Source of the DNA: an uncultured delta proteobacterium
GTDB taxonomy: Bacteria; Myxococcota_A; UBA9160; SMWR01
Reading direction: 5' to 3'
Length of the DNA: 64,000 nucleotides
NCBI GenBank assembly: GCA_963832165.1
Contig: CAWHTE010000002.1
Location: 384,001-448,000 of the forward strand
How positions within the stretch are numbered: the first letter of the stretch is position 1; each line of letters opens with the position of its first letter. A program made the translations under genes and the position numbers. Below the pieces are notes generated by a model. The model saw only the letters and a list, made by a program, of their open reading frames with translations. It was not told the DNA's origin and made no database searches. Shown here piece after piece: positions 22,761 through 57,103 of this stretch.

Positions 22761-22788
22761 TCAAGTGTGGGCCGCCCCAGGCCGTTGA
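22761..22788 (+). promoter_or_regulatory. Sigma28-like promoter P1
   Basis: TCAAG-N15-GCCGTTGA, 41 nt before ATG 22830. Confidence 0.6.
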
Positions 22789-22829
22789 GATGAGGCACAC
22801 CCGCGGCAGCGCGAGGCGGGGCGATCACC

Positions 22830-24815
22830 ATGACGCGTCAGAGCCGACCCACCTCTACTTCGCTCCCGTGGATCTCCACGCTGCTGCTCGCGTCGTTCGT
22901 CGCGTTCAGCGTGTACGCGCGCGTCCAGTACGCCACGGAGGGCCGCGAGGGAATCGCCGCGATCGATGCAGCGCAGGACTACCTCCTCGCGCATCCCTAT
23001 CTCACCGCACCGCCCGCGCTGCGCGCGCGTCTCGATCCGGAAGCAGTGCGGCGGGCGCGCGCTGCCTACGAGCAGCGGCTGGCCACCGAAGAGGTTCCGA
23101 CGCCGCCCGGCGTGATGCGGCGCCAGCAGGGAGAGCTCGACGCGAAGGTCGAGGCGGCGCTCGCGCGCGATCTTCCCGCGAGGCAGGTCGCGTTCGCTCC
23201 GGGCGCGAGCCCGCCGCTCTCCTGGCTCGCCTATCCGCTGCTGCACGTGGGCAACCTCGTGCTGATCGGCAACGGACTGCTCTTGATCTATTTCGGGATG
23301 TACCTCGAGCGCTCGCTCGGGCGCGTTCCGTATGCCGCGCTGCTCGTATTCCTCGCGCTGGCTGGCGCGATGGGATGGGTGGTCGCGGCGCCGCCCGCGG
23401 CCACGCACGGACTCGTGGGCAGCACGCCGCTCGTCGCGGGACTCCTGGGCGCGTTCGCGGTTCGCCTCGGGAACCACCGCAGCGAGGGCTTCTACGTCGT
23501 GGGGCTGGTCGCGGGTGCGCTGTGGATCGCGCTGCAGCCTTTCATCGGCCCGACCTGGTCGTTCGCGACGCTCGATCTCATCGCCACGAGCCCGGCGCCC
23601 GCGCCCGACGCGGTGTATTTCCCGTCCCTCGCAGCCGTGGTCGCGGCGCTGCTCGCGTCGGGGCTTGCGTGGGTGGCGCGGGTCGACGGCGAGACGCCCA
23701 CCACGGCCGCGCCGGTCGAGACGCGCGACCCGCGCTTCCGGGGCGCGCTGCGCGCGCGCCAGGCCGGGCGTCCGCGCGAAGCGCACGAGCTGCTCGCGCA
23801 GGTCCTCGTTGCCGAGCCCGACTCCTACGAGGCCGCGCTCGCCGCATGGGAAGTGGCGCGCGAGGTGGGTCGCGAGTCCGAGATCAGCGCGTCGCTCCAG
23901 CGCGTGATCCGGATCGAGATGCGGCGCGGGCTCGCGGGTGCGGCGATCGACCACTGGCTCGAGCTCGTGCGCGGCGGCATTCCCGAGCGCACCGAGCCCT
24001 CGCTGCTGATCCAGATGGCTCTGCTCCTGCGCGAGCACCACCACAAGCCCGAGGCCGTGCGCGCGCTGCGCTTCGCACTCGAGCACTCGGAAGACCGCGA
24101 GAACCACGTGATCGCGGCGCGCATCGCGCGCGCGGCGCGCGGTCTGGATCCGGGCACGAGCGAGTCGGCGGCCTGGCGCGCGCTCGCGAGCCTCGATCTG
24201 TCGATGCCGGAGCGTCAGGCGCTCGAAGGCCTGATCGGGGAGCTGCTCGCGACGCCGGACGCGCGCACCGCGTCGCTCGCGCGCGTGGAGGACGAGGCCT
24301 TCGCGACTTCGCCCGCCGCGGATGCGCCCACGGTCACGGGACCGCGCCCCGCCGCGATCGAGATCCAGACCAACGACCGCGTGCTCGACGCCGTGCACGC
24401 CGTGCCAGTCGAACTCGGGGAAGACGGCATCGAGATCCAGACGCGCTCGGGCAACAAGAAGCTCGTGCGCTACGAGCGCATCGAGGCGGTGTCGGTGGCG
24501 GCGGTGTACGGCATGGCCGAAAAGCCCGTGATCCTCATCGACCTCGTGCTCAACTGGATGACGCCGACGACGGAGACGCTGCGCGTGATCCGGATGCGCG
24601 GCGATCGATTCGATCCGCGCCGGGTGATCCCGGGCCACGCATCGGCTGCCGACGCGCTGCGCGCGTTCGTGAAGACACTGCTCGAGCGCTCGGACGCGAT
24701 CCCGCTGCCGGATCCGGAAGCCGCGCTCGGTCGGCCGTTCGCCTCGTTCGCCGAGCTCGTGATCTACCAGCGCGCCGTGCTGCTCGTGGAAGGTCCGGCG
24801 CAGCAGACCGAGTGA
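22830..24815 (+). CDS. Rhomboid-like membrane domain (catalytic residues apparently lost) plus TPR-like helical region and C-terminal globular domain
   Basis: LLHVG..VLIGN.LL..FG.YLER.LG and LVGSTPLVAGLLGA align to rhomboid TM2-TM4; helical repeats follow. Confidence 0.7.
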   Translation: MTRQSRPTSTSLPWISTLLLASFVAFSVYARVQYATEGREGIAAIDAAQDYLLAHPYLTAPPALRARLDPEAVRRARAAYEQRLATEEVPTPPGVMRRQQGELDAKVEAALARDLPARQVAFAPGASPPLSWLAYPLLHVGNLVLIGNGLLLIYFGMYLERSLGRVPYAALLVFLALAGAMGWVVAAPPAATHGLVGSTPLVAGLLGAFAVRLGNHRSEGFYVVGLVAGALWIALQPFIGPTWSFATLDLIATSPAPAPDAVYFPSLAAVVAALLASGLAWVARVDGETPTTAAPVETRDPRFRGALRARQAGRPREAHELLAQVLVAEPDSYEAALAAWEVAREVGRESEISASLQRVIRIEMRRGLAGAAIDHWLELVRGGIPERTEPSLLIQMALLLREHHHKPEAVRALRFALEHSEDRENHVIAARIARAARGLDPGTSESAAWRALASLDLSMPERQALEGLIGELLATPDARTASLARVEDEAFATSPAADAPTVTGPRPAAIEIQTNDRVLDAVHAVPVELGEDGIEIQTRSGNKKLVRYERIEAVSVAAVYGMAEKPVILIDLVLNWMTPTTETLRVIRMRGDRFDPRRVIPGHASAADALRAFVKTLLERSDAIPLPDPEAALGRPFASFAELVIYQRAVLLVEGPAQQTE

Positions 24816-25579
24816 TGAGCGCTGTGCTCGCGCGTATCACCTCGGGAATCTCGCGTCGACTGCGGCCGTGGATCGACCCCTGGCACCACCTCGACCGCAA
24901 CGTCCGCGAGCTGCGCAGCTACGCCCAGCTCGCGCTCGCGTTGGGCTGGTCGCGCGAGCCGATCCTCGAGGGGGACCACCTCCATCTCGTGCTGGGTCCC
25001 GAAGACTGGAACGAGCGCCGGCTGCGCGACGCCGAGGTGATCGGCGGCGCGTGCGCGAACGAGGCGCACAAGATCGCGCTCGAGATCGGCACCGCGCACG
25101 GTCTCGCCACGGTGCTCATGGCCGAGAACGCGCCGAGCGCACACGTGTACACCGTGAACATTCCGCCCGAGGAGATCGCGGCGGGTGTGGGCGGCGTGCA
25201 CACGACGTTTGCGCCCGAGCGCACCGAGATCGGGCGCGCGTGGCGCGAGCGCGAGCTCGGCAACGTGACGCAGATCCTCGCGAACACGGCGTACTGGGAG
25301 CCGGACTTCGGGCCGATCGACGTCGCGTTCATCGACGGCTGTCACGACGAGGAGTTCGTGTACGGCGACACTTGCCGTGTCCTCGCGCGCTGCCGCGCGG
25401 GCGCGATCGTGCTCTGGCACGATTTCCACCCGGGTCTCGTGCGCGCGTACCCGTGGATCGGGTCGGTGTGCCGCGGTGTGGAGCGCCTGTATCACGACGG
25501 CGTGTTGCGCGGGCCGATCCTGCACCTGCAGGACTCGTGGGTCGGGCTCTACCGCGTGCCCGCAGGCGGTGCGCCGTGA
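24815..25579 (+). CDS. Class I SAM-dependent methyltransferase (Methyltransf_24-like)
   Basis: LEIGTAHG, FIDGCHD, VLWHDF. Confidence 0.85.
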   Translation: MSAVLARITSGISRRLRPWIDPWHHLDRNVRELRSYAQLALALGWSREPILEGDHLHLVLGPEDWNERRLRDAEVIGGACANEAHKIALEIGTAHGLATVLMAENAPSAHVYTVNIPPEEIAAGVGGVHTTFAPERTEIGRAWRERELGNVTQILANTAYWEPDFGPIDVAFIDGCHDEEFVYGDTCRVLARCRAGAIVLWHDFHPGLVRAYPWIGSVCRGVERLYHDGVLRGPILHLQDSWVGLYRVPAGGAP

Positions 25580-27195
25580 AGATCGTGCTCGGTCACATGG
25601 CGTGGTCGGAGGAGGCGCTCGGCTGGCATCGCGCGCTGGCCGAGCGCGCGCGCGGGTTCGGCGTCGAGGTGGAGCCGCTGTGCCTGGTCCCCGATCCCCC
25701 TGCGCCGCGCTGGAGCTTCGAGGAGCTCGACCGCCGCTGGCGTCAGCGCGATCGCTCGCTGCTCCAGATCCGAGAGCAGTTGATCGAGGCGACCCGCGGT
25801 GCGGACGTGTTCTGGAACTTCAACGGCGCCAACGTGCATCCCGAATGGCTGGCGGATCTGCCCACGCTGAACGTGTACGGCTGCTTCGACGATCCCGAGA
25901 GCACCGAGCAGCTCTCGGAGCCGGTCGCGCGTTATTTCGACGCGGCGCTCGTGGGCAATCTCGGCTGCCTCCCGCTCTATCGGAGCTTCGGGCTGCGCCG
26001 GGTCGCGTGGGCGCCCAACGCGTTTCTCGGCGAGGACTGCCACGCGGATCTCACGCCCGAAGCGGTGCGCTCGAGCGACCGCCCGATCGACGTCGTCTTC
26101 TTCGGCGAGCGCGGGCTCCCGTGGCGGCGCGAGCGGCTCGACCAGCTCGCGAAGGCGTTCCCGAGCGCGGTGTTCCACGGGCACGGCTGGCCCGCGGGCT
26201 TCGCGAGCAACGCCGAGCGCCGCCGCATCTACCGCAGCGCAAAGATCGGCTGGAACGTCCACAACTCGGTCGGGCCGGTCAACCTGCGCACGTTCATGCT
26301 GCCCGCCGCGGGCGTGCTCCAGATCGGCGACAACAAGTGCCGCTTCGGTGAGGTGTTCCGGCTCGGTGAGGAAGCCGTGGGGTTCGACTCGGTCGGCGGC
26401 TCGATGGACGAGTGCATCGAGCTCACGCGCTACTACCTCGAGCACGACGAAGAGCGCCGCCGGATCGCCGCAAACGGCCGCGAGCGTTATGCGCGCGACT
26501 ACGCCGAGCCGCGGCTCTGGGACTACTACCGGCGCCGGCTCGCGGAGTGGATGAGCGCAGTGCGCGAGGTGGGGTCCGAGGCTCCGCGCTGGGAGCCCAC
26601 GCGACGTCCGGCGCTGTTGCAGAGGCTCGCGCGCGGCGCCGTCCGGCGCGTGCGCGAGCGCGCGGGGCTCGAGGTGCGCACCGAGCGCACCCGGTCCCAC
26701 GCTGTGCGCGATCCCGAGGTGATCGGCGGGGCGGTCGCTGCGCTCGTCGGCGACGCGGCGAGCATCGCGGCGATCGGACCCGGCGCGGATGCGTTCGCGC
26801 GCGAGGCCGCCGCGGATCCCGATCGCACCGTCGTGTGCTCGCTTCTCGATGCGCGCGCGATCGATGCGGCGCTCGGGCATCGCGCGCGCCCCAACCTCGC
26901 CTACGCCGAGCACCCGATCGGTGTGGCGGATGGGCCGTTCGATCTCGCCGTCGTCCTGGATCTCGAGCGCTTCGACGACGTGCTCCGCGACATCCGGCCG
27001 TTCGTCGCGCTCGCGCCGCGCCTGCTCGTCACGGCGCGCATTCGCGCGCACGAGCTCGACGCGGTCCTCCGCAGCTTCTACTCCGAGGTCGATCTGTACG
27101 CGCTTCCCGACGCGCGGATCCCGCAGCTCGCCAGAGCGGGCCTCGATACCGCGTGCTCGCCGCTGGTCGCCGAGTGTCGCGGGCCGGTCCGCTGA
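25576..27195 (+). CDS. CgeB-like glycosyltransferase with degenerate methyltransferase-like C-terminal domain
   Basis: FDDP, DVVFFG, YRSAKIGWN, NLRTF, YYLEHDEERRRIAANG. Confidence 0.75.
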   Translation: MKIVLGHMAWSEEALGWHRALAERARGFGVEVEPLCLVPDPPAPRWSFEELDRRWRQRDRSLLQIREQLIEATRGADVFWNFNGANVHPEWLADLPTLNVYGCFDDPESTEQLSEPVARYFDAALVGNLGCLPLYRSFGLRRVAWAPNAFLGEDCHADLTPEAVRSSDRPIDVVFFGERGLPWRRERLDQLAKAFPSAVFHGHGWPAGFASNAERRRIYRSAKIGWNVHNSVGPVNLRTFMLPAAGVLQIGDNKCRFGEVFRLGEEAVGFDSVGGSMDECIELTRYYLEHDEERRRIAANGRERYARDYAEPRLWDYYRRRLAEWMSAVREVGSEAPRWEPTRRPALLQRLARGAVRRVRERAGLEVRTERTRSHAVRDPEVIGGAVAALVGDAASIAAIGPGADAFAREAAADPDRTVVCSLLDARAIDAALGHRARPNLAYAEHPIGVADGPFDLAVVLDLERFDDVLRDIRPFVALAPRLLVTARIRAHELDAVLRSFYSEVDLYALPDARIPQLARAGLDTACSPLVAECRGPVR

Positions 27196-27203
27196 GGCGC
27201 GCC

Positions 27204-28289
27204 ATGCGAGTCGCCATCCATCCCGATGACTACAGCAGCCCGGGGCATGCGGGGGAGGACGCCTCTGCGCCGCGCTGGGCGAAAGCGCTCGAGGCCGCCG
27301 GCCACGAAGTGCACTGGGTCGACGTGTATCGCGCCGACATCCTCGATCAGCTCGACGGCTGCGATGGCTTCATGTGGCGACACGGGCACAGCTTGGAAAT
27401 GCAGCAGGTCGCGCGCCGCCTGCTTCCCGTCATCGAGCGCGAGCTCGGGCTCGCCGTCTACCCGGATCAGGCGACGGGATGGCACTACGACGACAAGATC
27501 GCGCAGGCCCATCTGCTGCGCGCGCTCCGCCTCCCCACACCGCAAACCTGGGCGTGGTTCGATCGCGCCGCGGCCGAGCGCTGGGCGCGCAGCGCGGACT
27601 ACCCCGTCGTGATGAAGCTCTCGAGCGGGGCGGGATCCGAGAACGTGCGGCGAATCGACAGCCCCGAGCAGGCGCTCGATCGAATCGCCGTGCTGTGGAC
27701 CAGCGGTGTCGGCGATCTGTCGGACGCGTCGCTGCGGCCGGCGCCGTGGCTCGGGCGGGTGCGCGACGCGGCGCGCGCGTTGGTCCGCGGTCGGCCGCCC
27801 CACCAGCACGGTCTTCGCCAGGGGCTTCACTACGGATACGCGCTATTCCAGGAGTTCCTCGCCGGCAACGAGTGGGACACGCGCGTCACCGTGATCGGCA
27901 AGCGCGCGTTCGCATTCCGGCGCTTCAACCGGCCCGGCGACTTCCGCGCGAGCGGCAGCGGCGCGCTCGATCCGAACCCGGATGCGATCGATCTGCCGAC
28001 CGTGCGTCTCGCGTTCGAGGCGGCGCGCCGCCTGGGATCGCAGTCGGTGGCGATCGACGGACTGCGCCGCGGCGACGAGCGGCTGATCGCCGAGGCCAGC
28101 TACACGTACATGAGCTCGGCAGTTGCGGACTGCCCCGGTCACTGGGAGCTGCGAGGAGATCCGCGCTCCGGCGATCTCTCCTGGGTGTCGGGTCGGATGT
28201 GGCCCGAGGACGCGCAGATCGAGGACTTCATCGAGCGCCTCGTACGGCGTGCACCGCGCCGTTTCGCGAGTTGGGCGCACCATGCGTAA
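27204..28289 (+). CDS. ATP-grasp (RimK-like) ligase
   Basis: YDDKIAQ, YPVVMKLSSGAGS.NV, FQEFL, DTRVTVIG, DFRASGSG. Confidence 0.82.
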   Translation: MRVAIHPDDYSSPGHAGEDASAPRWAKALEAAGHEVHWVDVYRADILDQLDGCDGFMWRHGHSLEMQQVARRLLPVIERELGLAVYPDQATGWHYDDKIAQAHLLRALRLPTPQTWAWFDRAAAERWARSADYPVVMKLSSGAGSENVRRIDSPEQALDRIAVLWTSGVGDLSDASLRPAPWLGRVRDAARALVRGRPPHQHGLRQGLHYGYALFQEFLAGNEWDTRVTVIGKRAFAFRRFNRPGDFRASGSGALDPNPDAIDLPTVRLAFEAARRLGSQSVAIDGLRRGDERLIAEASYTYMSSAVADCPGHWELRGDPRSGDLSWVSGRMWPEDAQIEDFIERLVRRAPRRFASWAHHA

Positions 28290-28932
28290 TGCGATCCATC
28301 GGCTCGCGCGTGCGCTCGTGCCGGCCCCGTGGCAGCCGCCCGCGGGCGTGACGCTCGGAGCCGGGTGTCGCGTGCTAGGCGACCCGCGCGTGCTCGTCGC
28401 CGACGGCGCGAGCGTGACGCTCGGAGCCGGTGTCGTGCTCAACTCGCTGCCCGACGGCTACCACGCGGCGATGACGTCGCCCGTGACGCTGCTCGCAGAC
28501 CGCGCGGGCGCGCGCATCAGCGTCGGAGACGGCACGCGGCTGCACGGCTGCTTCGTCCACGCCTGGTCGAGCGTGAGCCTGGGCCGCGGTTGCCTGGTGG
28601 CCGCGGGTGCGCAGCTGATCGACGCCCACGGTCACGCCACCGAGATGCGCTTCGCGCGCGTGCGCGCTCGCCTGCAAGACGAGCCCGAGCCGATCTCGCT
28701 CGGCGACCACTGCTGGATCGGCCTGGGCGCGCTCGTGTTCAAGGGCGCGCGCCTCGGCGAGGGATGCGTGGTGGGCGCGTACAGCGTGGTCGGTGCGGGC
28801 GAGTATCCGCCGTTCAGCGTGCTCGCGGGTGCTCCCGCGCAGGTGGTCCGCACCGCCGACCCCGCGGAAGTGTTGCCCGAGGACCATCCGCTCACGGGTC
28901 TCGGCGTCGATCATCGCATCTATCGCTATTAG
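28282..28932 (+). CDS. Hexapeptide-repeat (left-handed beta-helix) acyltransferase
   Basis: ISLGDHCWIG, GARLGEGCVVGAYSVV, LAGAPA. Confidence 0.87.
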   Translation: MRNAIHRLARALVPAPWQPPAGVTLGAGCRVLGDPRVLVADGASVTLGAGVVLNSLPDGYHAAMTSPVTLLADRAGARISVGDGTRLHGCFVHAWSSVSLGRGCLVAAGAQLIDAHGHATEMRFARVRARLQDEPEPISLGDHCWIGLGALVFKGARLGEGCVVGAYSVVGAGEYPPFSVLAGAPAQVVRTADPAEVLPEDHPLTGLGVDHRIYRY

Positions 28933-28947
28933 GCGAGCCAGGCGACC

Positions 28948-29778
28948 ATGGAAACTGAGCCCCGCGAACTCGTGATCGAAGCCGGACGGCACGACCGGCA
29001 GTACTGGGCCGACCTGTGGCAGTACCGGGAGCTGCTCGCGTTCCTCGCGTGGCGCGATATCGCCGTTCGCTACAAGCAGACCGCGATCGGTCTCGCGTGG
29101 GCGGTCGTCCGACCCGTACTCATGATCGCGATCTTCACGCTCGTGTTCGGCCGGCTGGCGCAGCTGCCCTCGGGCGGAGCTCCCTACGCGCTGCTCGTGT
29201 GCGCGGCGATTCTGCCGTGGCAGCTGTTCGCGAGCGCCTTCTCGGAGGCGGGCAACAGCCTGATCCACAACTCGAACCTGATCTCGAAGGTGTACTTCCC
29301 GAGGATTCTGCTGCCCGCGAGCGCCATGGCCGTGAGCCTGGTCGATTTCATCGTGTCGTTCGGGATCCTCGTGGGGCTCATGTCGTGGTACGGCGTGCAT
29401 CCGGATTGGAGGATGCTCACGCTGCCCGTGTTCGTCGGCGTCGCGCTGCTCGCGGCGGCCGGAGCGTCGCTCTGGATTGCCGCGCTGAACGTCCGGTTCC
29501 GCGATTTCCGCCACGTGATCCCGTTTGCAGTGCAGATCGGCGCCTACCTCTCGCCCGTCGGATTCAGCAGCTCGATCGTTCCCGAGCAATGGCGCCTCTT
29601 GTACTCGCTCAATCCCATCGTTGGCGTGATCGACGGGTTCCGATGGGCGGTGCTTGGGGATGGCGCGGGAATCCACGTGCCCGGCTTCATCGCATCGATC
29701 GGGATGTGTCTGCTCGTGCTCGTCACCGGGGTCTGGTTCTTCCGGCGGACCGAGCGCGGCTTCGCCGACGTGATCTGA
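28948..29778 (+). CDS. wzm: Polysaccharide ABC exporter permease
   Basis: WRDIAVRYKQTAIG, LISKVYFPR, FRDFRH, LNP, ERGFADVI. Confidence 0.93.
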   Translation: METEPRELVIEAGRHDRQYWADLWQYRELLAFLAWRDIAVRYKQTAIGLAWAVVRPVLMIAIFTLVFGRLAQLPSGGAPYALLVCAAILPWQLFASAFSEAGNSLIHNSNLISKVYFPRILLPASAMAVSLVDFIVSFGILVGLMSWYGVHPDWRMLTLPVFVGVALLAAAGASLWIAALNVRFRDFRHVIPFAVQIGAYLSPVGFSSSIVPEQWRLLYSLNPIVGVIDGFRWAVLGDGAGIHVPGFIASIGMCLLVLVTGVWFFRRTERGFADVI

Positions 29779-29789
29779 TCGGAGCACCC

Positions 29790-31070
29790 ATGTCGATCGC
29801 GATCACCGTCGAAGGGCTGGGCAAGAGCTACGAGCTGCGCCACCGCGCAGAGCCCTACCTCACGCTGCGGGACGCGATCGCGGGCAGGGCCCGCGAGATG
29901 GTGGGTCGGTTGCTCCAGCGCGGGGAACGCAAGCGGCCCACGCGCGAGAGCTTCTGGGCGCTGCGCGACGTCAGCTTCGAGCTCGAGTGCGGCGAGCGCC
30001 TGGCCGTGGTGGGACGCAACGGCGCCGGGAAGTCGACTCTGCTCAAGATCCTGTCGCGCATCACCGAGCCCACGCGCGGCCGCGCCCGCATCCGCGGACG
30101 CGTCGCGAGCCTGCTCGAGGTGGGAACCGGATTCCACCCCGAGCTGTCCGGACGCGAGAATGTATTCCTCTACGGCGCGATCCTGGGCATGAGTCGGCAC
30201 GAGATCCGGCGCCGATTCGACGAGATCGTCGACTTCGCCGAAGTCGAGCGCTTCATCGATACGCCCGTGAAGCGTTACTCGTCGGGGATGTACCTGCGGT
30301 TGGCGTTCTCGGTCGCCGCACATCTCGAGCCAGAGATCCTGGTCGTCGACGAAGTGCTCGCGGTCGGAGACGCCCAGTTCCAGCGCAAGTGCCTGGGGCG
30401 GATCGATCAGGTGAGCAGCAGCGGGCGGACGGTCCTGTTCGTGAGCCACAACATGCAGGCCGTGAAGCAGCTGTGCCCGCGCGCGATCTGGCTCGACCAG
30501 GGGCAGATCGTCGCCGCGGGCGATACCGAGAACGTCATCCACGCCTACATCGCCTCGGGCTCGTCGGAGAGCGGGCAGGACGTCGAGAAGCGGATTCGCA
30601 GCCTGCCCGAAGACCCGGTGCTCCGGCTCGAATCGGTGAAGCTCTTCCAGAACGAGCAGGAGATCGGCGACGTCGTCGAGAACGGCGAGTCGATCCGCCT
30701 GCAGATCCGCTTCCGGATTCTCGAGCGCGTCACGGGACTGCGGCTCTACTTCGATCTGTGCGACGACTACGACACGGTCCTCGTCCGGAGCTTCCACGAC
30801 GAGGATCGCGACGGCATCCCGGTGTTGGAGCCCGGCAGCTACCTCACGACCGCGACGATCCCGGCGAATCTGCTCGGGCCGATCTCGTACCGGCTGCGGA
30901 TCCTGGCCGGAATCCACAACGTCCGGAGCTGCCTGCCCTACGACGGTGTCGTCATCCCGCTCACGGTGGTCCACACCGGAGCGCACAACCGCGCCTATTC
31001 CGGCGACAGCTTCCGCGCGCGCCTCGCGCCCGCGCTTCAGTGGACGACCACGCAGCTGGAGGAGGCCTAG
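29790..31070 (+). CDS. wzt: Polysaccharide ABC exporter ATPase with C-terminal Wzt-C domain
   Basis: GRNGAGKST, YSSGM, VDEVLAVGD, VSHN; about 170-aa beta-rich extension. Confidence 0.93.
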   Translation: MSIAITVEGLGKSYELRHRAEPYLTLRDAIAGRAREMVGRLLQRGERKRPTRESFWALRDVSFELECGERLAVVGRNGAGKSTLLKILSRITEPTRGRARIRGRVASLLEVGTGFHPELSGRENVFLYGAILGMSRHEIRRRFDEIVDFAEVERFIDTPVKRYSSGMYLRLAFSVAAHLEPEILVVDEVLAVGDAQFQRKCLGRIDQVSSSGRTVLFVSHNMQAVKQLCPRAIWLDQGQIVAAGDTENVIHAYIASGSSESGQDVEKRIRSLPEDPVLRLESVKLFQNEQEIGDVVENGESIRLQIRFRILERVTGLRLYFDLCDDYDTVLVRSFHDEDRDGIPVLEPGSYLTTATIPANLLGPISYRLRILAGIHNVRSCLPYDGVVIPLTVVHTGAHNRAYSGDSFRARLAPALQWTTTQLEEA

Positions 31071-31961
31071 ATGGGAGCCTCCTCGGCGGCCGCGCGCGTC
31101 TTTCGGATCCTGGCTGCGCCGTTCTCGCGGCTCGCGCGAGCGCTGGAAGCGGCCGAGGTGCGGTCTCGCCTCGTCGAAGCGGGCGTCCCGCGCTCGCTCT
31201 ACCGGACACGGAGCGGTCAGCTCTTCTGGCTCGATCCCTCGAGCTATATGGACCGGTGCATCGCGGATCAGGGCGTGTTCGAGACGGACGCCGTCGCCGT
31301 CATGCAGCGGCTGGTCCAGCCCGGGCACACCGTACTCGACGTGGGTGCGAACATCGGGTTCCACACCGTGTTGTTGTCGCGGCTCGTCGGCCCGAAGGGG
31401 CGGGTACACGCGTTCGAGCCCACCGCGCGCTACCGGTCGATCCTCGAGCGCAACGTGCGCGCCAACAGTCTCGACAACGTCGCGATCCATCCGTTCGGAT
31501 TGTCCGACCGCAGTGCCGTTCGGACGATCCAGATCGGCGAGTCCTCCGCCACGCTGCATGCTCCGGGCCCTGCAGAGGTGCGCGCGCACGAGGAGATCGA
31601 GCTCGTGCGGCTCGACGACCTCGAGCCGCGGCTGGGTCTCTCACGGCTCGACTTCATCAAGGTCGACGTCGACGGCCACGAGCCGGCGTTCCTGCACGGG
31701 GCGGAGCGCGTCCTCGAGAGATGGGCGCCGCCGGTTCTGCTCGAGGTCAGCCATCTCCACTATCTCGAGGCCGGCTGGACCGCCTGGGACTTCTACCGCG
31801 AGCTCAAGAAGCAGGGCTACCTCGTCTACGACGAGGGCGGGCTCGTGGAGATCCGCAGCGAGACAGACTTCCTGATCCGCTGCGGAAACTTTCGCGAGAG
31901 CCGCAACATCGTGATCTCGCGGGAGCCGCTCCCGGCCGAATTGGAGGGGACAGTTCGATGA
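31071..31961 (+). CDS. FkbM family methyltransferase
   Basis: LDVGANIG, HAFEP, IKVDVDGHE. Confidence 0.9.
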   Translation: MGASSAAARVFRILAAPFSRLARALEAAEVRSRLVEAGVPRSLYRTRSGQLFWLDPSSYMDRCIADQGVFETDAVAVMQRLVQPGHTVLDVGANIGFHTVLLSRLVGPKGRVHAFEPTARYRSILERNVRANSLDNVAIHPFGLSDRSAVRTIQIGESSATLHAPGPAEVRAHEEIELVRLDDLEPRLGLSRLDFIKVDVDGHEPAFLHGAERVLERWAPPVLLEVSHLHYLEAGWTAWDFYRELKKQGYLVYDEGGLVEIRSETDFLIRCGNFRESRNIVISREPLPAELEGTVR

Positions 31962-32635
31962 TCACGCGCATGCGTTCCCTGGCCCGTCGCGCACTGCATG
32001 GCTCGGCCGCCGCCGGTCACCTCCACCTGTATCCGTACAACTTCCAGCCGTCGCAGCTCTGCTTCCTGTGCGCATGCCTCGAAGAGACCCGGAACGTCCC
32101 GGGCAACGTCGCGGAGGTGGGCTGCGCCCACGGCTACACGGCGGTCTTCCTCAACAAGTACATGGACGACCAGAAGATCGAGAAGCAGTACTTCGCGGTG
32201 GATACGTTTAGCGGCTTCGTGACCGAGGACCTGGCGTTCGAGGTCGTGCAGCGCGGCAAGCCGCCGGGACTGATCACGGGCTTCGAGGACAATCGGAAGA
32301 AATGGGTCGACGAGTCGATGCGCGCCAATGCCATTCGGCGCGTAAAGTCGATCCAGGCCGACGTCAACGAACTCGACCTCACGACCCTGGGCCCGCTGGC
32401 GTTCTGCGTGCTCGACGTGGACCTCTATCGGCCGATGTCGAAGGCCTTGGAAGAACTGTACGACGTGCTCTCGCCGGGCGGTGTGATGGTCGTAGACGAC
32501 TGTGACCCGAACAACGTCCGCTGGGATGGCGCGGACCAGGCCTACCGCGAGTTCACGAAGAGTCGCGGGCTTCCGTACACCGTCGTTCACCGGAAGCTCG
32601 GAGTCGTGCGAAAGGCCGAGAACCGACCCGCCTAG
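31958..32635 (+). CDS. TylF/MycF-like O-methyltransferase
   Basis: GNVAEVGC..G, DTFSGF, LDVDLY, LSPGGVMVVDD. Confidence 0.85.
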   Translation: MITRMRSLARRALHGSAAAGHLHLYPYNFQPSQLCFLCACLEETRNVPGNVAEVGCAHGYTAVFLNKYMDDQKIEKQYFAVDTFSGFVTEDLAFEVVQRGKPPGLITGFEDNRKKWVDESMRANAIRRVKSIQADVNELDLTTLGPLAFCVLDVDLYRPMSKALEELYDVLSPGGVMVVDDCDPNNVRWDGADQAYREFTKSRGLPYTVVHRKLGVVRKAENRPA

Positions 32636-41305: not shown

Positions 41306-41333
41306 TCATCGGCCTTGTTCGCGCGCGCCTTTA
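41306..41333 (-). promoter_or_regulatory. Sigma28-like promoter P2
   Basis: TAAAG-N15-GCCGATGA. Confidence 0.75.
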
Positions 41334-41354: not shown

Positions 41355-41382
41355 TTCAGTGCCGGCGCGGCCGCGCCGATAA
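41355..41382 (+). promoter_or_regulatory. Sigma28-like promoter P3
   Basis: TTCAG-N15-GCCGATAA, 17 nt before ATG 41400. Confidence 0.75.
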
Positions 41383-43141: not shown

Positions 43142-43175
43142 CGCACCTCCCGTCGGGCTTCGCCAGCAGGTAACC

Positions 43176-43203
43176 GGGTCGGCGAAGCCCCTCATTTCCT
43201 TGA
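43176..43203 (-). promoter_or_regulatory. Sigma28-like promoter P4
   Basis: TCAAG-N15-GCCGACCC, 34 nt before ATG 43141. Confidence 0.65.
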
Positions 43204-43216
43204 GTGATCGCGTGGC

Positions 43217-43244
43217 TCAGGCCCGGGACCGCTTCCGCCGATGA
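43217..43244 (+). promoter_or_regulatory. Sigma28-like promoter P5
   Basis: TCAGG-N15-GCCGATGA, 10 nt before ATG 43255. Confidence 0.7.
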
Positions 43245-43254
43245 GAGAGTGCCG

Positions 43255-44970: not shown

Positions 44971-45027
44971 TCCGCCCTACGAAGAGGTCTTGTAGGGCGG
45001 ATTAGCCCGAAGGGCGTAATCCGCCAT
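44945..45027. repeat. Inverted doublet of 36-nt GTAG-family REP elements between convergent genes
   Basis: GTAGGGCGGATTAG-ccc GAA ggg-CGTAATCCGCCAT at 44992-45027 and an inverted copy at 44945-44980, 11-nt spacer. Confidence 0.88.
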
Positions 45028-45923: not shown

Positions 45924-45941
45924 CTCCCTTCCAAGCCTCCT

Positions 45942-45969
45942 GAATCGGATGCGCGCACGCGCGGCTGAA
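45942..45969 (-). promoter_or_regulatory. Sigma28-like promoter P6
   Basis: TTCAG-N15-TCCGATTC, 18 nt before ATG 45923. Confidence 0.55.
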
Positions 45970-46036
45970 GGCCCGCGGGTGAACCGGTGTGGCCGCTTTT
46001 CCCCGCACGGACGGGCGCCTCGGGGCGCCGCCTGCC

Positions 46037-46064
46037 TCAAGCCGAAGCGCCAAGTAGCCGATTT
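46037..46064 (+). promoter_or_regulatory. Sigma28-like promoter P7
   Basis: TCAAG-N15-GCCGATTT, 31 nt before ATG 46096. Confidence 0.72.
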
Positions 46065-46095
46065 CAAAGGCGCGGGAGGTCGCGCGCACAGGGCC

Positions 46096-47469: not shown

Positions 47470-48372
47470 GTGACCGACGTCGACGTTTCGATCTGCATTG
47501 CCACCTATCGCCGGCGTCACGGGCTCGCGCGCCTGCTCGACAGCTTGTCGCGCCTGAAGCTGCCCGAGGGCGTGCGCGCCGAGGTGATCGTGGTCGACAA
47601 CGACCCCGCGAGCGATCCGGCCTACACGCTCGACGCCGACGCCGTGCCGCCGTTTGCGCTGCGCTGGCTGCGCGAGCCGCGCCGCAACATCGCCTACGCG
47701 CGCAATCTCGCGGTGGCGAACGCGCGCGGGCGCTGGGTTGCGTTCGTCGACGACGACGAGGTGGTCGACGAGCACTGGCTCGCCGCCTACTGGGAGCGCG
47801 CCTCCGAGGGCGAGTGCGACGGCTACTTCGGCCCCGTGCTGCCGCGCATCGAGACCTGGTACACGCCGTGGCTCGACGTGTCGTTCTTCGAGCGCCCGCG
47901 CTTCGTCTCGGGCACCCGGATCACGAACCTGGGCGCCCACACCTGCAATGCGTTCGTGCGCCGCGCGCTCCTGCGCGACGCGATGTTCGACCCCGCGTTC
48001 GGTCGCAGCGGCGGCGAGGACACCGCGCTGTTCCGGCGACTCGCCGCGCGCGGTGCGCACTTCGCCTGGTGCGACCAGGCGATCGTGCACGAGTACGTTC
48101 CGGCCGCGCGCCACCGGCCCGGCTGGCTCGCGCAGCGCGCGTTCCGCGGCGGGTGTGTGCACGCGCAGATCGAGCACGAGCTCGGACGCGTGCCGTCTCG
48201 CTCGGCGGCTGTGACGCAGTCCAGCGCGGCAGCGGGTGTGCTGCTCGCGGCGGCCACGGCGCTGCTGATCGGCGGGCGCGCGCGTTCGCTGCGCGTGCTG
48301 CTGCAAGCGGCGGTCCAGGCCGGCAAGGGCTGGGGGCACCTGGGCGGGGGATTCCAGGAGTACTCCGACTAG
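47470..48372 (+). CDS. Glycosyltransferase family 2 (ExoM-like)
   Basis: ICIATYRR, VVDND, NIAYARN, FVDDDE, GGEDT. Confidence 0.9.
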   Translation: MTDVDVSICIATYRRRHGLARLLDSLSRLKLPEGVRAEVIVVDNDPASDPAYTLDADAVPPFALRWLREPRRNIAYARNLAVANARGRWVAFVDDDEVVDEHWLAAYWERASEGECDGYFGPVLPRIETWYTPWLDVSFFERPRFVSGTRITNLGAHTCNAFVRRALLRDAMFDPAFGRSGGEDTALFRRLAARGAHFAWCDQAIVHEYVPAARHRPGWLAQRAFRGGCVHAQIEHELGRVPSRSAAVTQSSAAAGVLLAAATALLIGGRARSLRVLLQAAVQAGKGWGHLGGGFQEYSD

Positions 48373-48373
48373 C

Positions 48374-49576
48374 ATGCGGATCGCGCTCTTCCACAACCGC
48401 TACCGCGAGCGCGGCGGCGAAGACACGCTCGTCGACACCGAGTCCGAGCTGCTCGCAAAGGGCGGCCACGAGGTCGTGCGCTGCATCGTCGACAACCGCG
48501 AGGAGCTGTCGAGCGCGCTCGGCGTGATCCGCACGGCGCTGCGCGCGCGCCGGAATCCCGAGAGCGCCGCTCGCGCTGCCCGGCTCGCGGGGGAGGCGCC
48601 GCTCGACGTCGCGCACGTGCACAACTTCTTTCCCGTGCTCTCGCCCGCGATTCACGAGACGCTCTCGGCGCTCGGCGTTCCCGTGGTCCAGTCGCTGCAC
48701 AACTATCGGCTGCTGTGCGGGAACGGGTATCTCATGCGCGATGGGCGCGTGTGCGAGGAGTGCATACCGCGCGGGCCGTGGCACGCGGTGCGCTACGGCT
48801 GCTACCGCGGCTCCCGTGTGCAGACGGTGGTCTGGTCGGACGCGATCTCGCACCACCGCGCGCGCGACACCTGGCGCCGCTGCGTCGATCGCTTCGTCGT
48901 GCCGACCGAGTTCGTGGCGACGAAGCTGCTCGCGGCGGGGCTACCGCGCGAGCGCGTCGAGGTGTTGCCCTACGTGGTCGCCGATCCGGGCGAGCCGGCG
49001 CCGCCGGGGCACGGCGCGGTGTACGTGGGCCGGCTGTCGCCCGAGAAGGGCGTCGACCTCTTGATCGACGCGTGGCGCGAGCAGGGCGGGGCGCCGCTCG
49101 AGATCGTCGGCAGCGGCCCCGCCGAGGCGGAGCTGCGCGAGCGCGCGCGCGGCGTGCCGGGTGTGCGCTTCCTGGGCGTGCAGGACCGGGAGGGCGTGCT
49201 GCGCGCGCTGCGCGCGGCCGCGTTCGCCGTGGTGCCTTCGCGCTGGTACGAGATCGCGCCGTACGCGGCGATCGAGGCGCTCGCGTGTGGCCGGCCCGTG
49301 GTGGCGTGGCGCGGTGGCTCGCTCGCACAGCTCGTGAGCGACGGGCATTCGGGTCTGCTGTTCGACGCGCTCGAGCCCGCGAGCGTCGCGCGCGTGTGCA
49401 CGGCGCTGCTCGGCGACGCGGAGCTCGTGCGCCGGCTCGCCGCGGGAGCGCGCGAGGACTATCTCGACCATCACGCGCCCGAGGCCGGACTCGCCGCGCG
49501 CGAGAGGCTGTACGCCGCGGTCAGCGACGAGCGGCGGCGTGGAGAATCGCCCGGCGCAGACCGCCCGCGAGCGTAG
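48374..49576 (+). CDS. Glycosyltransferase family 4
   Basis: HNRY...GGED, HVHNFFP.LSP, LHNYRL.C, GRLSPEKG, PSRWYE..EALACGRPV. Confidence 0.92.
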   Translation: MRIALFHNRYRERGGEDTLVDTESELLAKGGHEVVRCIVDNREELSSALGVIRTALRARRNPESAARAARLAGEAPLDVAHVHNFFPVLSPAIHETLSALGVPVVQSLHNYRLLCGNGYLMRDGRVCEECIPRGPWHAVRYGCYRGSRVQTVVWSDAISHHRARDTWRRCVDRFVVPTEFVATKLLAAGLPRERVEVLPYVVADPGEPAPPGHGAVYVGRLSPEKGVDLLIDAWREQGGAPLEIVGSGPAEAELRERARGVPGVRFLGVQDREGVLRALRAAAFAVVPSRWYEIAPYAAIEALACGRPVVAWRGGSLAQLVSDGHSGLLFDALEPASVARVCTALLGDAELVRRLAAGAREDYLDHHAPEAGLAARERLYAAVSDERRRGESPGADRPRA

Positions 49577-50705
49577 CCGGGCCGAAACGCTTCGCGGTGT
49601 CGCGAGCCCGTGCGCCGAGCCGCGCGCGCTCGGGATCCGCGAGCGCGTGCGCGAGCTCGCTGCGCAGCCGCTCGGGATCGGTCGGATCGCACAGCCATCC
49701 CGTCTGGCCGGGCTCGATCAGATCGTCGGCGCAGCCCGCGAGCCGCGAGCACAGGACGGGCAGTCCGCACGTCATCGCTTCGTTCACGACCAGGCCCCAG
49801 GGATCGCCGAGGCTCGGGAACACCAGCAGGTCCGACGCCGCGTAGGCGGCCGCGAGCGCGTCGGGGCGCAGCGCGGGCAGCCGCGCGATCGCGCCCGCGC
49901 CGCACGCTCGGCGCGCGTCGTCGACCGCGCCCGCGAGCGGGCCGTCGCCCACGAACAGGAGCGTCCAGCTCGAGCGCGCGGACTCGGGCAGCTCCCGCCA
50001 CGCGTCGAGCAGCGGCAGCACGCCCTTCGACGCCTCGAGCCGCCCCGGCACCAGCGCGATCTGCTCGCGCGTGCCGAGCGACGCGCGCAGCGCGAGGCGC
50101 TCCGCGGTCACGTCGAGCGCGGCGAAGCGCGCTTCCCACCACTCCGCGGCGTGCGCGTTGGGCGCGTCGAACAGCCGCGCCTCGGGTACGCCGAGCCCGC
50201 GCAACACCTCGCGCGCCTGGACTCCCATCCCCACCACGGCATCCGCGCGCGCGAGCAGCGCGCGGCGCAGCGCGCGCTGGAGCGAGCCGACCGCTGCGGC
50301 CGCGCTGCGCGCGTGGTAGCTCCAGATCACGAGCGGCACGCGGTAGAGCGCCGCGTAGGCGGCCGCGAACATCGTGCGCGGGCCGAGCTCGCTCGTCACC
50401 ACGACGTCGGGAGCGAAGCGGCGCAGGGATCCGAGCGCGCCCCACGGAACGTGCAGCGTCGACCACTGCTCCGACGCCTGTGCGCGGTGCGCGCGCACGC
50501 GCCGGCGCAGCGACGCGCCGCCCACGATCTCGACGTCGAGGTCCGCGCGTCCCTGCTCGTAGGCGCCCTCGAAGGCGCGCTGCCAGCTCGGGTCGTCGGC
50601 CGCGGACAGCAGCACGCGCAGCTGCCAGCCCGGCGTCGCGGCGAGATCGCGGTACACCGGCAGGCGGTACGGCGTGAGGATGTTGGTCAGCAGCGCGACG
50701 CGCAT
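49521..50705 (-). CDS. Glycosyltransferase family 4
   Basis: TNILTPYR, GRLEASKG, DPWGLVVNEAMTCGLPV. Confidence 0.9.
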   Translation of the reverse strand: MRVALLTNILTPYRLPVYRDLAATPGWQLRVLLSAADDPSWQRAFEGAYEQGRADLDVEIVGGASLRRRVRAHRAQASEQWSTLHVPWGALGSLRRFAPDVVVTSELGPRTMFAAAYAALYRVPLVIWSYHARSAAAAVGSLQRALRRALLARADAVVGMGVQAREVLRGLGVPEARLFDAPNAHAAEWWEARFAALDVTAERLALRASLGTREQIALVPGRLEASKGVLPLLDAWRELPESARSSWTLLFVGDGPLAGAVDDARRACGAGAIARLPALRPDALAAAYAASDLLVFPSLGDPWGLVVNEAMTCGLPVLCSRLAGCADDLIEPGQTGWLCDPTDPERLRSELAHALADPERARLGARARDTAKRFGPATLAGGLRRAILHAAARR

Positions 50706-52402
50706 CAGTAGGCCTTGTAGAACGCGATCGGCGCCGAGCGCGGCGGCTCGTCGACTGCGAGCACGAGCAGGCCGCGCGTTCCGTCGGCGTCGAACGAGAC
50801 GGAGTGCCGCTTCGCGTCCAGGAATCGCACCGCGGCGGCTGCGAGCGGCTCGCCGTCGATACGGATCGGGTTCGCGGTGCCGATCGGGAGCCAGCGATAG
50901 GGCGCGGAGACGAGCAGCTCGAAGCTGGACTCGGCGCCAGCGTTGCCCTGCAAGCGGCGCCCCGCAACGAACACGGAGTCTCGATAGGGCTGATAGTTCT
51001 CGTCCCAGAACGCGCGCAGGGGCGCCGGGAACTGATTGAGCCGGAACGACTGCACGAGGTAGTGCACGGGCTCGGCGCGGAAGCGCGCGATCAGATGATC
51101 GACCTCGCGATCGCGCTGCGGGCCCTCGAACGTGCGGTAGATGCGCTGCGAGAACCAGAGCCCGATCGGCTGGCGCACGCCGCAGAACAGAGCGGTCTCG
51201 GGTTGGAAGCCCGCGCGATCGGGCGAGAAATTGCGGTGCACGAAGCGCAGGCTTTCGCGCTGCACCGCCTGACTGTCGTCGAGCGCGAGGGCCGTGTGCA
51301 GGACCGCACCGAGCCCGAGCGCGGCCCAGAGCACGGGCGACCCGAGGCGCGCGGTGCTCGGCCAGGGCGCGAACGCGCTGCGCAGCGGGGCCAGCGCGAG
51401 CGCGAAGGCGACCGCTGCGAACAGCCCCAGCGTCATGAGGAAGTAGGCGAACGCGGCGGCGTGGAACGCACCGACGCCGACACCGAGCGCGAGCACGGCC
51501 CACGCGAGGGCCATACGCCGCGTGCGCGCGGCCTTCATCGCGAGCGTCGCGGCGCTCATCGCCGCGAACAGCGCGAGATGGGGCACGAGCGACGGCAGCG
51601 TCGCGAGGTACTGCGAGTAGCCGATCGTCGCGCGATAGAAGTCGAACACGTCGAGGTAGTTGCGCACGGTCTCCGGCGAGGTGCCCGAGATCGCAGAGTG
51701 GGTCTCTGGCACCTCGAACGCGATCGCCACGAAGCCGCGCCAGGCCGCGAGCACGAGCAGGGCACCGAGCGCAGTGCCGCCTGCGCGCGCGAGCTCGCGG
51801 CGGGTGCGCCACTCGGTGCGCAGCGCGAGGTCGCCCGCGGCGAGCAGTCCCGCGAGCGCCGCGACGTAGGCGAGCTTCTGGGTGCCGAGCCAGCCGATTC
51901 CGAACGCCACGCCCGCCACGAGCGCGAGCCACGGACGCCGACGCGAGGCGAGCAGCGCCGCCGCGCCCCACGCCCCGCCGACCAGCGCCACCTGGTCGGT
52001 GCGGACCTGGATCGACCATTCGAGAAATGCGGGCAGGAGGCCCAGCAGCGCCGTACCGAGCGCCGCGTCGTGCCAGCGGTGGCGATCCGCGGGCAAGAGC
52101 TCGCATAGCAGTACGAACACGCCCGCCAGGTAGCCCCAGGTGAGCGCGAGCCACGCGAGCCGCGCAGCGCGCCCCGTCGCGATCTCGTCCGCGCATGCGC
52201 GCACGAGTGGAAGCAGCGCGACCTGCGGCAGGCCCGGGTGCCCCGCGCTCTGGAGCTCGCCGAGCTGTGCCGTGAGCGCCACGTCGTGGAACAGCGCGAA
52301 CTCGTCCCAGTTGAAGGCGGTCGTGAACACGGTCGCGACGCGCAGCGCCGCGAATCCGAGCAGCGCGCACGCGAGCGCGATCCAGCCGATCCGGCGGGCC
52401 AT
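50705..52402 (-). CDS. Polytopic membrane protein, GT-C-like (ArnT/PMT-type) glycosyltransferase candidate
   Basis: About 10 hydrophobic segments, NWDE after TM1, VRTD, TQK; soluble C-terminal domain. Confidence 0.6.
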   Translation of the reverse strand: MARRIGWIALACALLGFAALRVATVFTTAFNWDEFALFHDVALTAQLGELQSAGHPGLPQVALLPLVRACADEIATGRAARLAWLALTWGYLAGVFVLLCELLPADRHRWHDAALGTALLGLLPAFLEWSIQVRTDQVALVGGAWGAAALLASRRRPWLALVAGVAFGIGWLGTQKLAYVAALAGLLAAGDLALRTEWRTRRELARAGGTALGALLVLAAWRGFVAIAFEVPETHSAISGTSPETVRNYLDVFDFYRATIGYSQYLATLPSLVPHLALFAAMSAATLAMKAARTRRMALAWAVLALGVGVGAFHAAAFAYFLMTLGLFAAVAFALALAPLRSAFAPWPSTARLGSPVLWAALGLGAVLHTALALDDSQAVQRESLRFVHRNFSPDRAGFQPETALFCGVRQPIGLWFSQRIYRTFEGPQRDREVDHLIARFRAEPVHYLVQSFRLNQFPAPLRAFWDENYQPYRDSVFVAGRRLQGNAGAESSFELLVSAPYRWLPIGTANPIRIDGEPLAAAAVRFLDAKRHSVSFDADGTRGLLVLAVDEPPRSAPIAFYKAY

Positions 52403-52408
52403 GCGTCT

Positions 52409-52436
52409 GGATCGGCTTTGCGCGTGGCGCGATTGA
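52409..52436 (-). promoter_or_regulatory. Sigma28-like promoter P8 (leaderless position)
   Basis: TCAAT-N15-GCCGATCC, 6 nt before ATG 52402. Confidence 0.65.
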
Positions 52437-52561: not shown

Positions 52562-52589
52562 TTCACCCGCGCTCGCGGCGCGCCGATAC
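52562..52589 (+). promoter_or_regulatory. Sigma28-like promoter P9
   Basis: TTCAC-N15-GCCGATAC, 33 nt before ATG 52623. Confidence 0.62.
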
Positions 52590-56669: not shown

Positions 56670-56671
56670 CG

Positions 56672-57049
56672 CTATTCGACGCGCTCGGCGGTCTGTGCGT
56701 GGATGCCCCAGATTTCGTCGTCCAGCGACGCGTGATCCCACTTGCCGGCGACGCGCACCTTGCGGCCGACCTCGGGCGGTTTGCCGTCGTTGAGCTTGCG
56801 CAGCATGTGCTCAGGAACGCGGACCAGCACCGAGCCGGTGTCATCCTCGAGCGTCACGACGTAGCGGGAGCCGGAACCCACCGCGACGTGGGTGATGCGA
56901 CCCTGGACCATCACGTAGTCGCCCGACTCGGCCTTCTCGTTCACCTCCGCGATCGGGCGGACCCCGGACGCCATCGACCCCTTCCAGGCGGAAGCCGGAG
57001 CGGCCAGCGTGAAGCTCGCAATGGCGAGGACGATCACTGCGCTGCGCAT
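56672..57049 (-). CDS. Secreted OB-fold protein (YgiW/YdeI-like)
   Basis: Signal peptide ending ASA; V.VQGRI...LEDDTGSV.V...V.V.G. Confidence 0.75.
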   Translation of the reverse strand: MRSAVIVLAIASFTLAAPASAWKGSMASGVRPIAEVNEKAESGDYVMVQGRITHVAVGSGSRYVVTLEDDTGSVLVRVPEHMLRKLNDGKPPEVGRKVRVAGKWDHASLDDEIWGIHAQTAERVE

Positions 57050-57075
57050 GGAACCCCCCTTTGCGCGGGATTCAT

Positions 57076-57103
57076 GGATCGGTGCCGCGCACGCGGAGCT
57101 TGA
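57076..57103 (-). promoter_or_regulatory. Sigma28-like promoter P10
   Basis: TCAAG-N15-ACCGATCC, 26 nt before ATG 57049. Confidence 0.62.

Follow-up and report, generated by a model that had tools for sequence, protein, structure and literature searches.

Predicted sigma-28-type promoters ahead of a surface-glycan island in an uncultured member of the Myxococcota in which no flagellar genes were found

The window analysed here, a stretch of 64,000 nucleotides (nt) corresponding to C2:384001-448000 in assembly G000, comes from an uncultured member of the Myxococcota and carries an island of surface-glycan genes together with ten copies of a two-part motif, T(C/A)AAG-N15-GCCGAT, placed ahead of almost all transcription units of the island. 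It appears from sequence comparisons that these ten motifs are promoters, probably read by the single FliA/WhiG-family sigma factor of the genome and forming part of a set of about 100. The assembly comprises 5.54 Mb in 11 contigs, has a G+C content of 70% and is rated 89% complete. Genes were called with a home-made codon-pair model trained on the genome (4927 genes, 89% coding density), 11% of the genome being non-coding, and the genome-wide upstream set holds 2688 regions.

All ten motifs claimed in an earlier, sequence-only reading of the window were found, on inspection of the sequence, at the positions and on the strands that it gave (Table 1). Their consensus is C-T-(C/T)-(A/C)-A-G, N15, G-C-C-G-A-T. 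The literal pattern TCAAG-N15-GCCGAT, with at most two mismatches, recovers eight of the ten, missing 45942- and 52562+, whose -35 words are TTCAG and TTCAC, respectively. The same pattern has 46 matches in the window, as compared with 21.7 +/- 5.3 in 100 shuffles, none of which reaches 46. With a refined matrix, trained on upstream regions outside the window only, the ten sites score 12.3-17.9 bits. Twenty-four window genes are preceded by a gap of 40 nt or more. Nine of these reach at least 12.3 bits, all of them at sites of that reading; the remaining 15 score at most 7.9 bits. The tenth site, 57076-, is hidden from this comparison by an overlapping gene call; an ATG 26 nt past its motif opens a signal peptide. 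Each site was also said to lie 6-47 nt before a start codon. The orientation is right, but at 41306- the likely start lies about 59 nt after the motif. There, the ATG chosen by the gene caller overlaps the -10 box and therefore cannot be the real start; the likely one is the Met ahead of the lipobox. This site and 41355+ are arranged back to back. At 43217+, the gap between GCCGAT and the ATG is so short that the mRNA may be leaderless.

The motif also emerges from a blind test. When 2.43 million pairs of 5-mers with gaps of 10-21 nt were compared in 2521 upstream regions (those left after dropping 167 of the 2688 for an interspersed repeat), CTCAA-N17-CCGAT ranked first, being seen 19 times against 0.34 expected, and the next ranks were shifted forms of it (TCAAG-N16-CCGAT, TCAAG-N17-CGATA and CTCAA-N16-GCCGA). 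A first matrix, built from the ten window sites alone, has 84 genome matches of at least 16 bits; 48 of these are intergenic and 40 of the 84 lie at most 200 nt upstream of a same-strand gene. Intergenic matches to this matrix of at least 15 bits number 63 at spacer 15 and 14 at spacer 16; each of the remaining spacers between 10 and 20, nine in all, has 3-17. The refined matrix reaches at least 13 bits in 111 of the 2688 upstream regions (6-20 with wrong spacers) and at least 12 bits in 133 (14-27 with wrong spacers), the counts at spacer 15 being slightly inflated by scoring the matrix on its own training regions, minus the window. From the 111 true-spacer and 6-20 wrong-spacer regions, the regulon is put at about 100 promoters, of which some 10% would be false calls. 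Enrichment upstream of starts over controls, which the sequence-only reading had proposed as a check, is upheld. At high-scoring sites across the genome, GCCGAT and the start codon are separated by a median of 33 nt. Eighteen of the 111 high-scoring sites lie at most 10 nt from the called start codon, as would be expected if the mRNAs were leaderless or the starts wrongly called. The raw word-pair statistics are dominated by an interspersed repeat rich in GCGCAGCGAGCGAAG-like words and distinct from the palindromic element described below; it was flagged in up to 167 of the 2688 upstream regions (for example, L069:10660-10730).

At a loose threshold of 11 bits, the refined matrix finds 143 sites, with the consensus T-C-A-A-G, N15, G-C-C-G-A-T and a CGA core that is invariant across them. 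The boxes, T(A/C)AA at -35 and GCCGA(T/A) at -10 with 16 nt between, are those of the sigma-28 promoter class. In E. coli, the sigma-28 consensus is spaced one base more tightly than here. This was a source of worry, dismissed since WhiG and Bdellovibrio FliA promoters share the N16 spacing. The WhiG consensus is T(A/C)AA-N16-GCCGATAA (PMC12871210) and the FliA promoter of Bdellovibrio, derived from 140 mapped transcription starts, is TTAAG-N16-CCGATA (PMC3627812); here and below, comparisons with papers cited by PMC number refer to the parts of those papers that were available. The resemblance to the FliA/SigD/WhiG consensus claimed from the sequence agrees with both.

A FliA/WhiG-family sigma factor, on whose presence the proposal depends, is indeed encoded by the genome. 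The 254-residue product of C5:361084-361848 matches TIGR02479 over C5:361153-361830 at 283.9 bits (cut-off 189.6), the sole hit over the cut-off, and has Pfam sigma regions 2, 3 and 4. Among proteins of solved structure, it most resembles the WhiG chains of RsiG-WhiG complexes (247.8 and 243.9 bits), followed by E. coli FliA (196.1 bits). Profile searches of the 89%-complete genome gave no match to Flagellin_N, FliG_C, FHIPEP (FlhA) or FlgM, and no flagellar family was found among 60 proteins scanned downstream of the motif. Chance loss of the whole flagellar gene set at this completeness is unlikely. Flagellin glycosylation, one of the roles first offered for the island, is therefore unlikely as well, since flagellin, FliG and FlhA were not found. 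RsbW-like and STAS domains occur elsewhere in the genome; they were considered and set aside, no link to the sigma factor or the motif having been found.

The motif is conserved around the sigma gene itself. Eighty loci were fetched from related species, with sigma proteins 83-98% identical. On the minus strand, 0.5-1.4 kb past the sigma gene, the motif is present in 56 of the 67 loci with enough flank (1-5 of 67 with wrong spacers). There, as in the window's genome, it precedes a gene for a PP2C phosphatase. Also on the minus strand, 1.5-2.3 kb ahead of the sigma gene, it occurs in 52 of 69 loci (1-9 of 69 with wrong spacers), at the place where the window's genome has divergent sigma-54 activator genes. 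The boxes are kept between species and the spacer letters differ. In the window's genome, the site past the sigma gene is strong (18.4 bits) and that ahead of it weak at most (12.4 bits, inside a gene call).

The FliA/WhiG gene has two sigma-54 activator genes as its direct upstream neighbours, and a sigma-54-type box, TGGCAC-N5-GTGCT, is found at -101 to the sigma gene (C5:361084; L069:10984-10999). Such a box precedes the sigma gene in all of 78 related loci (80-126 nt upstream in the examples displayed), and in none of the 78 at a control spacing.

In the island, conservation is mixed. Orthologues of the priming transferase have kept the motif in three of six loci (G039, G015 and G108), with different spacer letters, and in G039 there is also a divergent site at the place matching 45942-. 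The 565-residue membrane protein has orthologues in three of 30 other genomes of the order, the motif being kept before two of them. No match to the GT4 encoded at 43255-44970 was found at E<=1e-20 in these 30 genomes, and at the DNA level only the priming-transferase and WecG segments match them beyond short, low-scoring segments. The island is thus made of a conserved core and a variable part, both of which have the predicted promoter.

The predicted regulon extends well beyond glycans. With the first matrix, 74 sites reach at least 13.5 bits, nine of them in the window, and the best 60 of the 65 outside it were scanned for their targets. Among these best 60 are genes for five GGDEF, one EAL and four PilZ proteins; four stand-alone receiver proteins, a hybrid kinase, a further histidine kinase and two chemoreceptors; a PilB-type ATPase with an MshEN domain, a prepilin, a Flp pilin and a T2SS-C-like protein; a bactofilin, DivIVA, a Roadblock/LC7 protein, an Arf-like GTPase, two DUF4388 proteins and an FHA protein; Hsp70, a DnaJ protein and an AAA ATPase; a GT2; and the PP2C phosphatase adjoining the sigma gene. 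Twelve targets have no Pfam family. At 13 bits or more, the motif precedes five of ten GGDEF genes and four of 12 PilZ genes, as compared with 111 of the 2688 upstream regions overall. About 100 predicted promoters, mostly of non-flagellar genes, would make this a global FliA regulon of the Bdellovibrio type. The surface-glycan programme first proposed is right in that a sigma-promoter-like motif and a sigma factor are present; it is not glycan-specific, as the 111 regions indicate. The island is the densest motif cluster in the genome (nine sites in 35 kb). The second densest, G000:C6:7900-35700, has eight sites in 35 kb, which precede a receiver/PAS-GAF kinase operon, an Rrf2 regulator gene divergent from a globin gene, a GT28/EryCIII-like glycosyltransferase gene and several genes without a Pfam family.

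The downstream genes listed in the sequence-only reading were confirmed by Pfam searches of the window proteins (Table 1). The first operon encodes a rhomboid-domain membrane protein, a glycosyltransferase, a hexapeptide acyltransferase, Wzm and Wzt of an ATP-binding cassette (ABC) transporter, and FkbM and TylF methyltransferases. Counted over the motif-bearing units from 22.8 to 52.4 kb, the families ABC2_membrane, ABC_tran, Bac_transf and WecG, with three GT2 and three GT4, are those of an ABC-transporter-dependent polysaccharide pathway. A fourth GT2, at 19634-20638, falls outside these units.

Table 1. Predicted promoters and annotated genes of the window (window coordinates)
Feature	Position	Strand	Details
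Predicted sigma-28-type promoter	22761..22788	+	12.3 bits; -10 box GCCGTT; precedes operon 22830-32635
Glycan export/modification operon, ABC-transporter type	22830..32635	+	9.8 kb; gene calls, Pfam
Wzm	28972-29778	+	Pfam ABC2_membrane
Wzt	29790-31070	+	Pfam ABC_tran
Phosphodiesterase-domain protein	37870-40155	-	Pfam PF01663
Lipobox protein	40152 to ~41247	-	Lipobox LFAGC
Predicted promoter	41306..41333	-	17.8 bits; TAAAG -35 word; precedes lipobox and phosphodiesterase genes
Predicted promoter	41355..41382	+	15.5 bits; precedes WecG/TagA-family glycosyltransferase 41400-42239
Glycosyltransferase block	41400..52402	both	Six transcription units, each with its own motif
WecG/TagA-family glycosyltransferase	41400-42239	+	PF03808, 192.7 bits
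GT2	42236-43141	-	Pfam
Predicted promoter	43176..43203	-	13.7 bits; -10 box GCCGAC; precedes GT2 42236-43141
Predicted promoter	43217..43244	+	15.3 bits; precedes GT4 43255-44970; GCCGAT to ATG 12 nt
GT4	43255-44970	+	Pfam
GT2	45027-45923	-	Pfam
Predicted promoter	45942..45969	-	12.5 bits; TTCAG -35 word, TCCGAT -10 box; precedes GT2 45027-45923
Predicted promoter	46037..46064	+	17.9 bits; exact literal-pattern match; precedes priming-transferase operon
Priming sugar transferase (Bac_transf)	46096-47469	+	Pfam; operon with next two genes
GT2	47470-48372	+	Priming-transferase operon
GT4	48374-49576	+	Priming-transferase operon
GT4	49521-50705	-	Unit of 565-residue membrane protein
565-residue multi-pass membrane protein	50705-52402	-	Same unit as GT4 49521-50705
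Predicted promoter	52409..52436	-	15.4 bits; precedes 565-residue membrane protein; GCCGAT to ATG 8 nt
Predicted promoter	52562..52589	+	13.2 bits; precedes 107-residue signal-peptide protein 52623-52946
107-residue signal-peptide protein	52623-52946	+	Signal peptide
Asparagine-synthase-like gene	52986-54926	+	Pfam; downstream of 52562+ site
Predicted promoter	57076..57103	-	17.1 bits; precedes small signal-peptide protein 56672 to ~57049

Two further features of the region are recorded here. An 85-nt near-perfect palindrome (44945-45030; -63.6 kcal/mol, z = -9.1 relative to shuffles) lies between the convergent genes 43255-44970 and 45027-45923, and is taken for a REP-like interspersed element because copies or half-copies are found at about 32 places in the genome. 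Within 32669-35485, the minus-strand frame 32669-35233 has a carboxyl-transferase domain only from residue 363, and the gene caller keeps 522 residues of it; about 1.2 kb (34238-35485) is without a confident gene call.

The wider distribution of the sigma factor was examined in 151 Myxococcota genomes, 86 of which have a FliA/WhiG match over the cut-off and 64 a flagellin. Myxobacteria in culture are known to be without flagella. The window's genome belongs to family f1, in which it and both sampled relatives have the sigma factor and none of the three has flagellin; in the same order, flagellin is found in families f4 (four of nine genomes), f5 (four of six) and f7 (the one genome sampled). 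Three flagellins of the same class (family f8) have no sigma-54-type box and carry instead a sigma-28-like box, CT(A/T)AAG...CCGAA. The exact word TCAAG-N16-CCGAT was also counted against a control spacer in the same codon phase: in the 26 genomes of the window's class that have FliA, it gives 853 matches and the control 294.

Several observations weigh against the assignment of the ten sites to this sigma factor, or at least against its details. Start codons, and hence distances to starts, are approximate because the gene caller is home-made. The site 22761+, ahead of the export operon, is the weakest of the ten at 12.3 bits. A lookup for window positions 41000-47500 listed no RNA run that contains this DNA, its rows being small shares of soil-metagenome DNA. 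On the side of the anti-sigma factor, the FlgM profile has no match in the genome, and the cyclic di-GMP-binding helix motif of RsiG, E-x3-S-x2-R-x3-Q-x3-D, sought by regular expression in the 4927 predicted proteins, is absent from small proteins; the expression matches only two giant proteins of 3847 and 4462 residues. In relatives, three of the six priming-transferase loci and one of the three membrane-protein loci have no motif in the fetched DNA, and three f6 relatives have WecG directly before the priming transferase with no motif in the fetched flank. Nor do the flagellin genes of same-order relatives tie the motif to FliA: of 16 upstream regions (from G051, G057, G068, G088, G093, G098, G103, G108 and G128), one reaches 13.0 bits with the first matrix and 15 stay below 10, and 14 of the 16 carry a sigma-54-type TGGCA(C/T)-N5-nTGC box, 91-223 nt upstream and never at control spacings. 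Flagellin in the flagellated relatives of the order thus seems, from these boxes, to be sigma-54 dependent. Finally, the word is not enriched in other classes, either with FliA (1127 matches vs 1128 for the control, 67 genomes) or without it (972 vs 875, 56 genomes), and two FliA-negative genomes of the window's class have 2 vs 3 and 21 vs 6 matches, the latter of which may reflect an assembly gap. Because the enrichment is confined to the window's own class, the large regulon is a feature of the clade, and the phylum comparison cannot separate sigma from lineage.

Some of these points would suit a different sigma factor. The genome has five further sigma-70-family matches (78-114 bits), and one of these, or an extracytoplasmic function (ECF) sigma factor, might read the motif; the absence of the motif from same-order flagellin genes and a phylum-wide word count that does not track FliA fit such a view. 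It is nonetheless improbable in our judgement. In the available parts of PMC8325347, PMC12871210 and PMC3627812, a GCCGAT(A) box paired with a T(A/C)AA word 16 nt away marks promoters of the sigma-28 family only; moreover, the motif flanks the FliA/WhiG gene on both sides in most related loci (56 of 67 and 52 of 69), and a related box is found at the flagellins of the same class.

It is less likely still that the two boxes are the halves of a transcription-factor site, for an activator or a repressor, and not a -35/-10 pair. Dimeric regulators are also known to bind half-sites at fixed spacing, and a normal leader would not fit at the several sites that lie 8-12 nt from the start codon. However, the two halves are dissimilar and not palindromic, they keep one orientation relative to the gene, a spacer of 15 suits sigma geometry (only 15 and, weakly, 16 are enriched), and the match to the sigma-28 consensus spans both boxes. 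As for chance matches or pieces of interspersed repeats, a genome of 70% G+C with two abundant intergenic repeats, and with a codon periodicity that inflates some spacer counts in coding DNA, could in principle generate such sites. We find this hardly credible, since the motif still ranks first once repeat-bearing upstream regions are removed, wrong-spacer controls give 5- to 18-fold fewer matches, and related species have kept the boxes but not the letters of the spacers. A repeat-element origin, in particular, is rejected because the spacer letters differ among all copies.

The motifs are probably read by the FliA/WhiG homologue, and we favour the following mechanism. RNA polymerase carrying this sigma factor would recognize T(C/A)AAG at -35 and GCCGAT at -10 and start transcription a few bases past GCCGAT, very near the start codon in some units (8 and 12 nt at 52409- and 43217+). 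The sigma gene is itself predicted to be transcribed from a sigma-54 promoter and would thus need an activator, as in flagellar hierarchies. Once made and free, the sigma factor would turn on together the export operon, the six glycosyltransferase units, the lipoprotein/phosphodiesterase unit and the two secreted proteins; pili, polarity proteins and cyclic di-GMP enzymes would be switched on alongside the island. The likely output of the programme is a surface-attached or pilus-motility lifestyle, in which surface polysaccharide is made together with pili and cyclic di-GMP signalling, since the other targets are cyclic di-GMP, pilus, chemoreceptor and polarity/cytoskeleton genes. In Myxococcus, pilus-driven motility and development need exopolysaccharide and O-antigen. 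Co-regulation of glycans and pili would therefore be sensible.

Parts of this arrangement have counterparts elsewhere. In Vibrio and Pseudomonas, flagellar genes are reportedly ordered in a sigma-54 to sigma-28 hierarchy (Prouty et al. 2001). The sigma-54-type box and the two adjacent activator genes recall this hierarchy, with the difference that there is no flagellum to build. In the syp polysaccharide locus of Vibrio fischeri, each unit is under a promoter that depends on SypG and sigma-54. Here too, a single alternative sigma factor would control the units of a glycan locus one by one; unlike syp, this sigma is of the sigma-28 type, no enhancer-binding protein would be needed and the predicted regulon is genome-wide.

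The closest parallel is the attack-phase regulon of Bdellovibrio bacteriovorus FliA (Karunker et al. 2013, PMC3627812), with a near-identical motif at the same spacing, promoters of the order of 100, a link to cyclic di-GMP and numerous targets outside the flagellum, among them genes for chemotaxis and the cell surface. Bdellovibrio has flagella, and 5'-end sequencing served to map its promoters, whereas in the window's genome no flagellar genes were found and the promoters are predicted; a further difference is that the predicted targets here extend to pilus and polarity genes and to an entire polysaccharide island. WhiG, which serves sporulation in Streptomyces, and type IV pili and diguanylate cyclase and phosphodiesterase genes in Rubrobacter, is a flagellar-clade sigma factor that works without flagella (PMC8325347, PMC12871210). 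The likeness extends to pilus genes and cyclic di-GMP enzymes among the targets, and WhiG is the closest solved relative (247.8 bits). The genome studied here differs in belonging to a two-membrane myxobacterial lineage and in having no RsiG-type motif in its small proteins. The predicted regulon is also far larger, with about 100 promoters as compared with 12 confirmed ones in Rubrobacter (PMC12871210), and the words polysaccharide and glycosyl have no occurrence in the available part of the latter paper. With the class III flagellar promoters of FliA/SigD (E. coli, Salmonella and Bacillus; TAAA / GCCGATAA, PMC8325347), the motif shares the -10 box and the protein family, but its -35 word is mostly TCAAG and its targets are non-flagellar except for two chemoreceptor genes.

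A literature search found nothing on FliA, WhiG or sigma-28 in Myxococcota, myxobacteria or Myxococcales, nor on a glycan island under such control. The new points are that an entire surface-glycan island is a predicted target, with one promoter wired to each unit, and that the sigma-54 input is conserved; glycan genes might nonetheless figure among the FliA targets in supplementary tables to the papers cited.

We infer that the ancestor had a sigma-54 to sigma-28 cascade of the flagellar type, in which sigma-28 would already have been mostly non-flagellar, and that this cascade outlived the flagellum in family f1. A broader scenario, in which the whole class has kept the cascade and its flagellum-less lineages have turned sigma-28 into a global lifestyle sigma factor, is to us an even call. 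In that scenario, more than 100 promoters would wire every unit of a partly strain-specific island together with pili, polarity and half of the diguanylate cyclases. New glycan genes would then gain sigma-28 promoters on joining the island, as suggested by the GT4 gene at 43255-44970, which has a predicted promoter and no orthologue in the 30 genomes.

Sigma-28 is the textbook flagellar sigma factor, with few other uses on record (actinobacterial WhiG, chlamydial sigma-28 and Bdellovibrio FliA), and each non-flagellar case is informative on how regulons are rewired. With one sigma factor, one core polymerase and a 28-nt promoter, the present one would also be a simple test system. The promoters can be recognized in the DNA itself, so that the regulon provides a ready list of co-regulated genes, many of unknown function, for organisms that cannot yet be cultivated. 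If the proposal is true, a large uncultured branch of the myxobacteria uses sigma-28 for surface sugars, pili, polarity and cyclic di-GMP, which are the ingredients of the social, surface-bound life of myxobacteria, with the flagellar-style sigma-54 input still in place.

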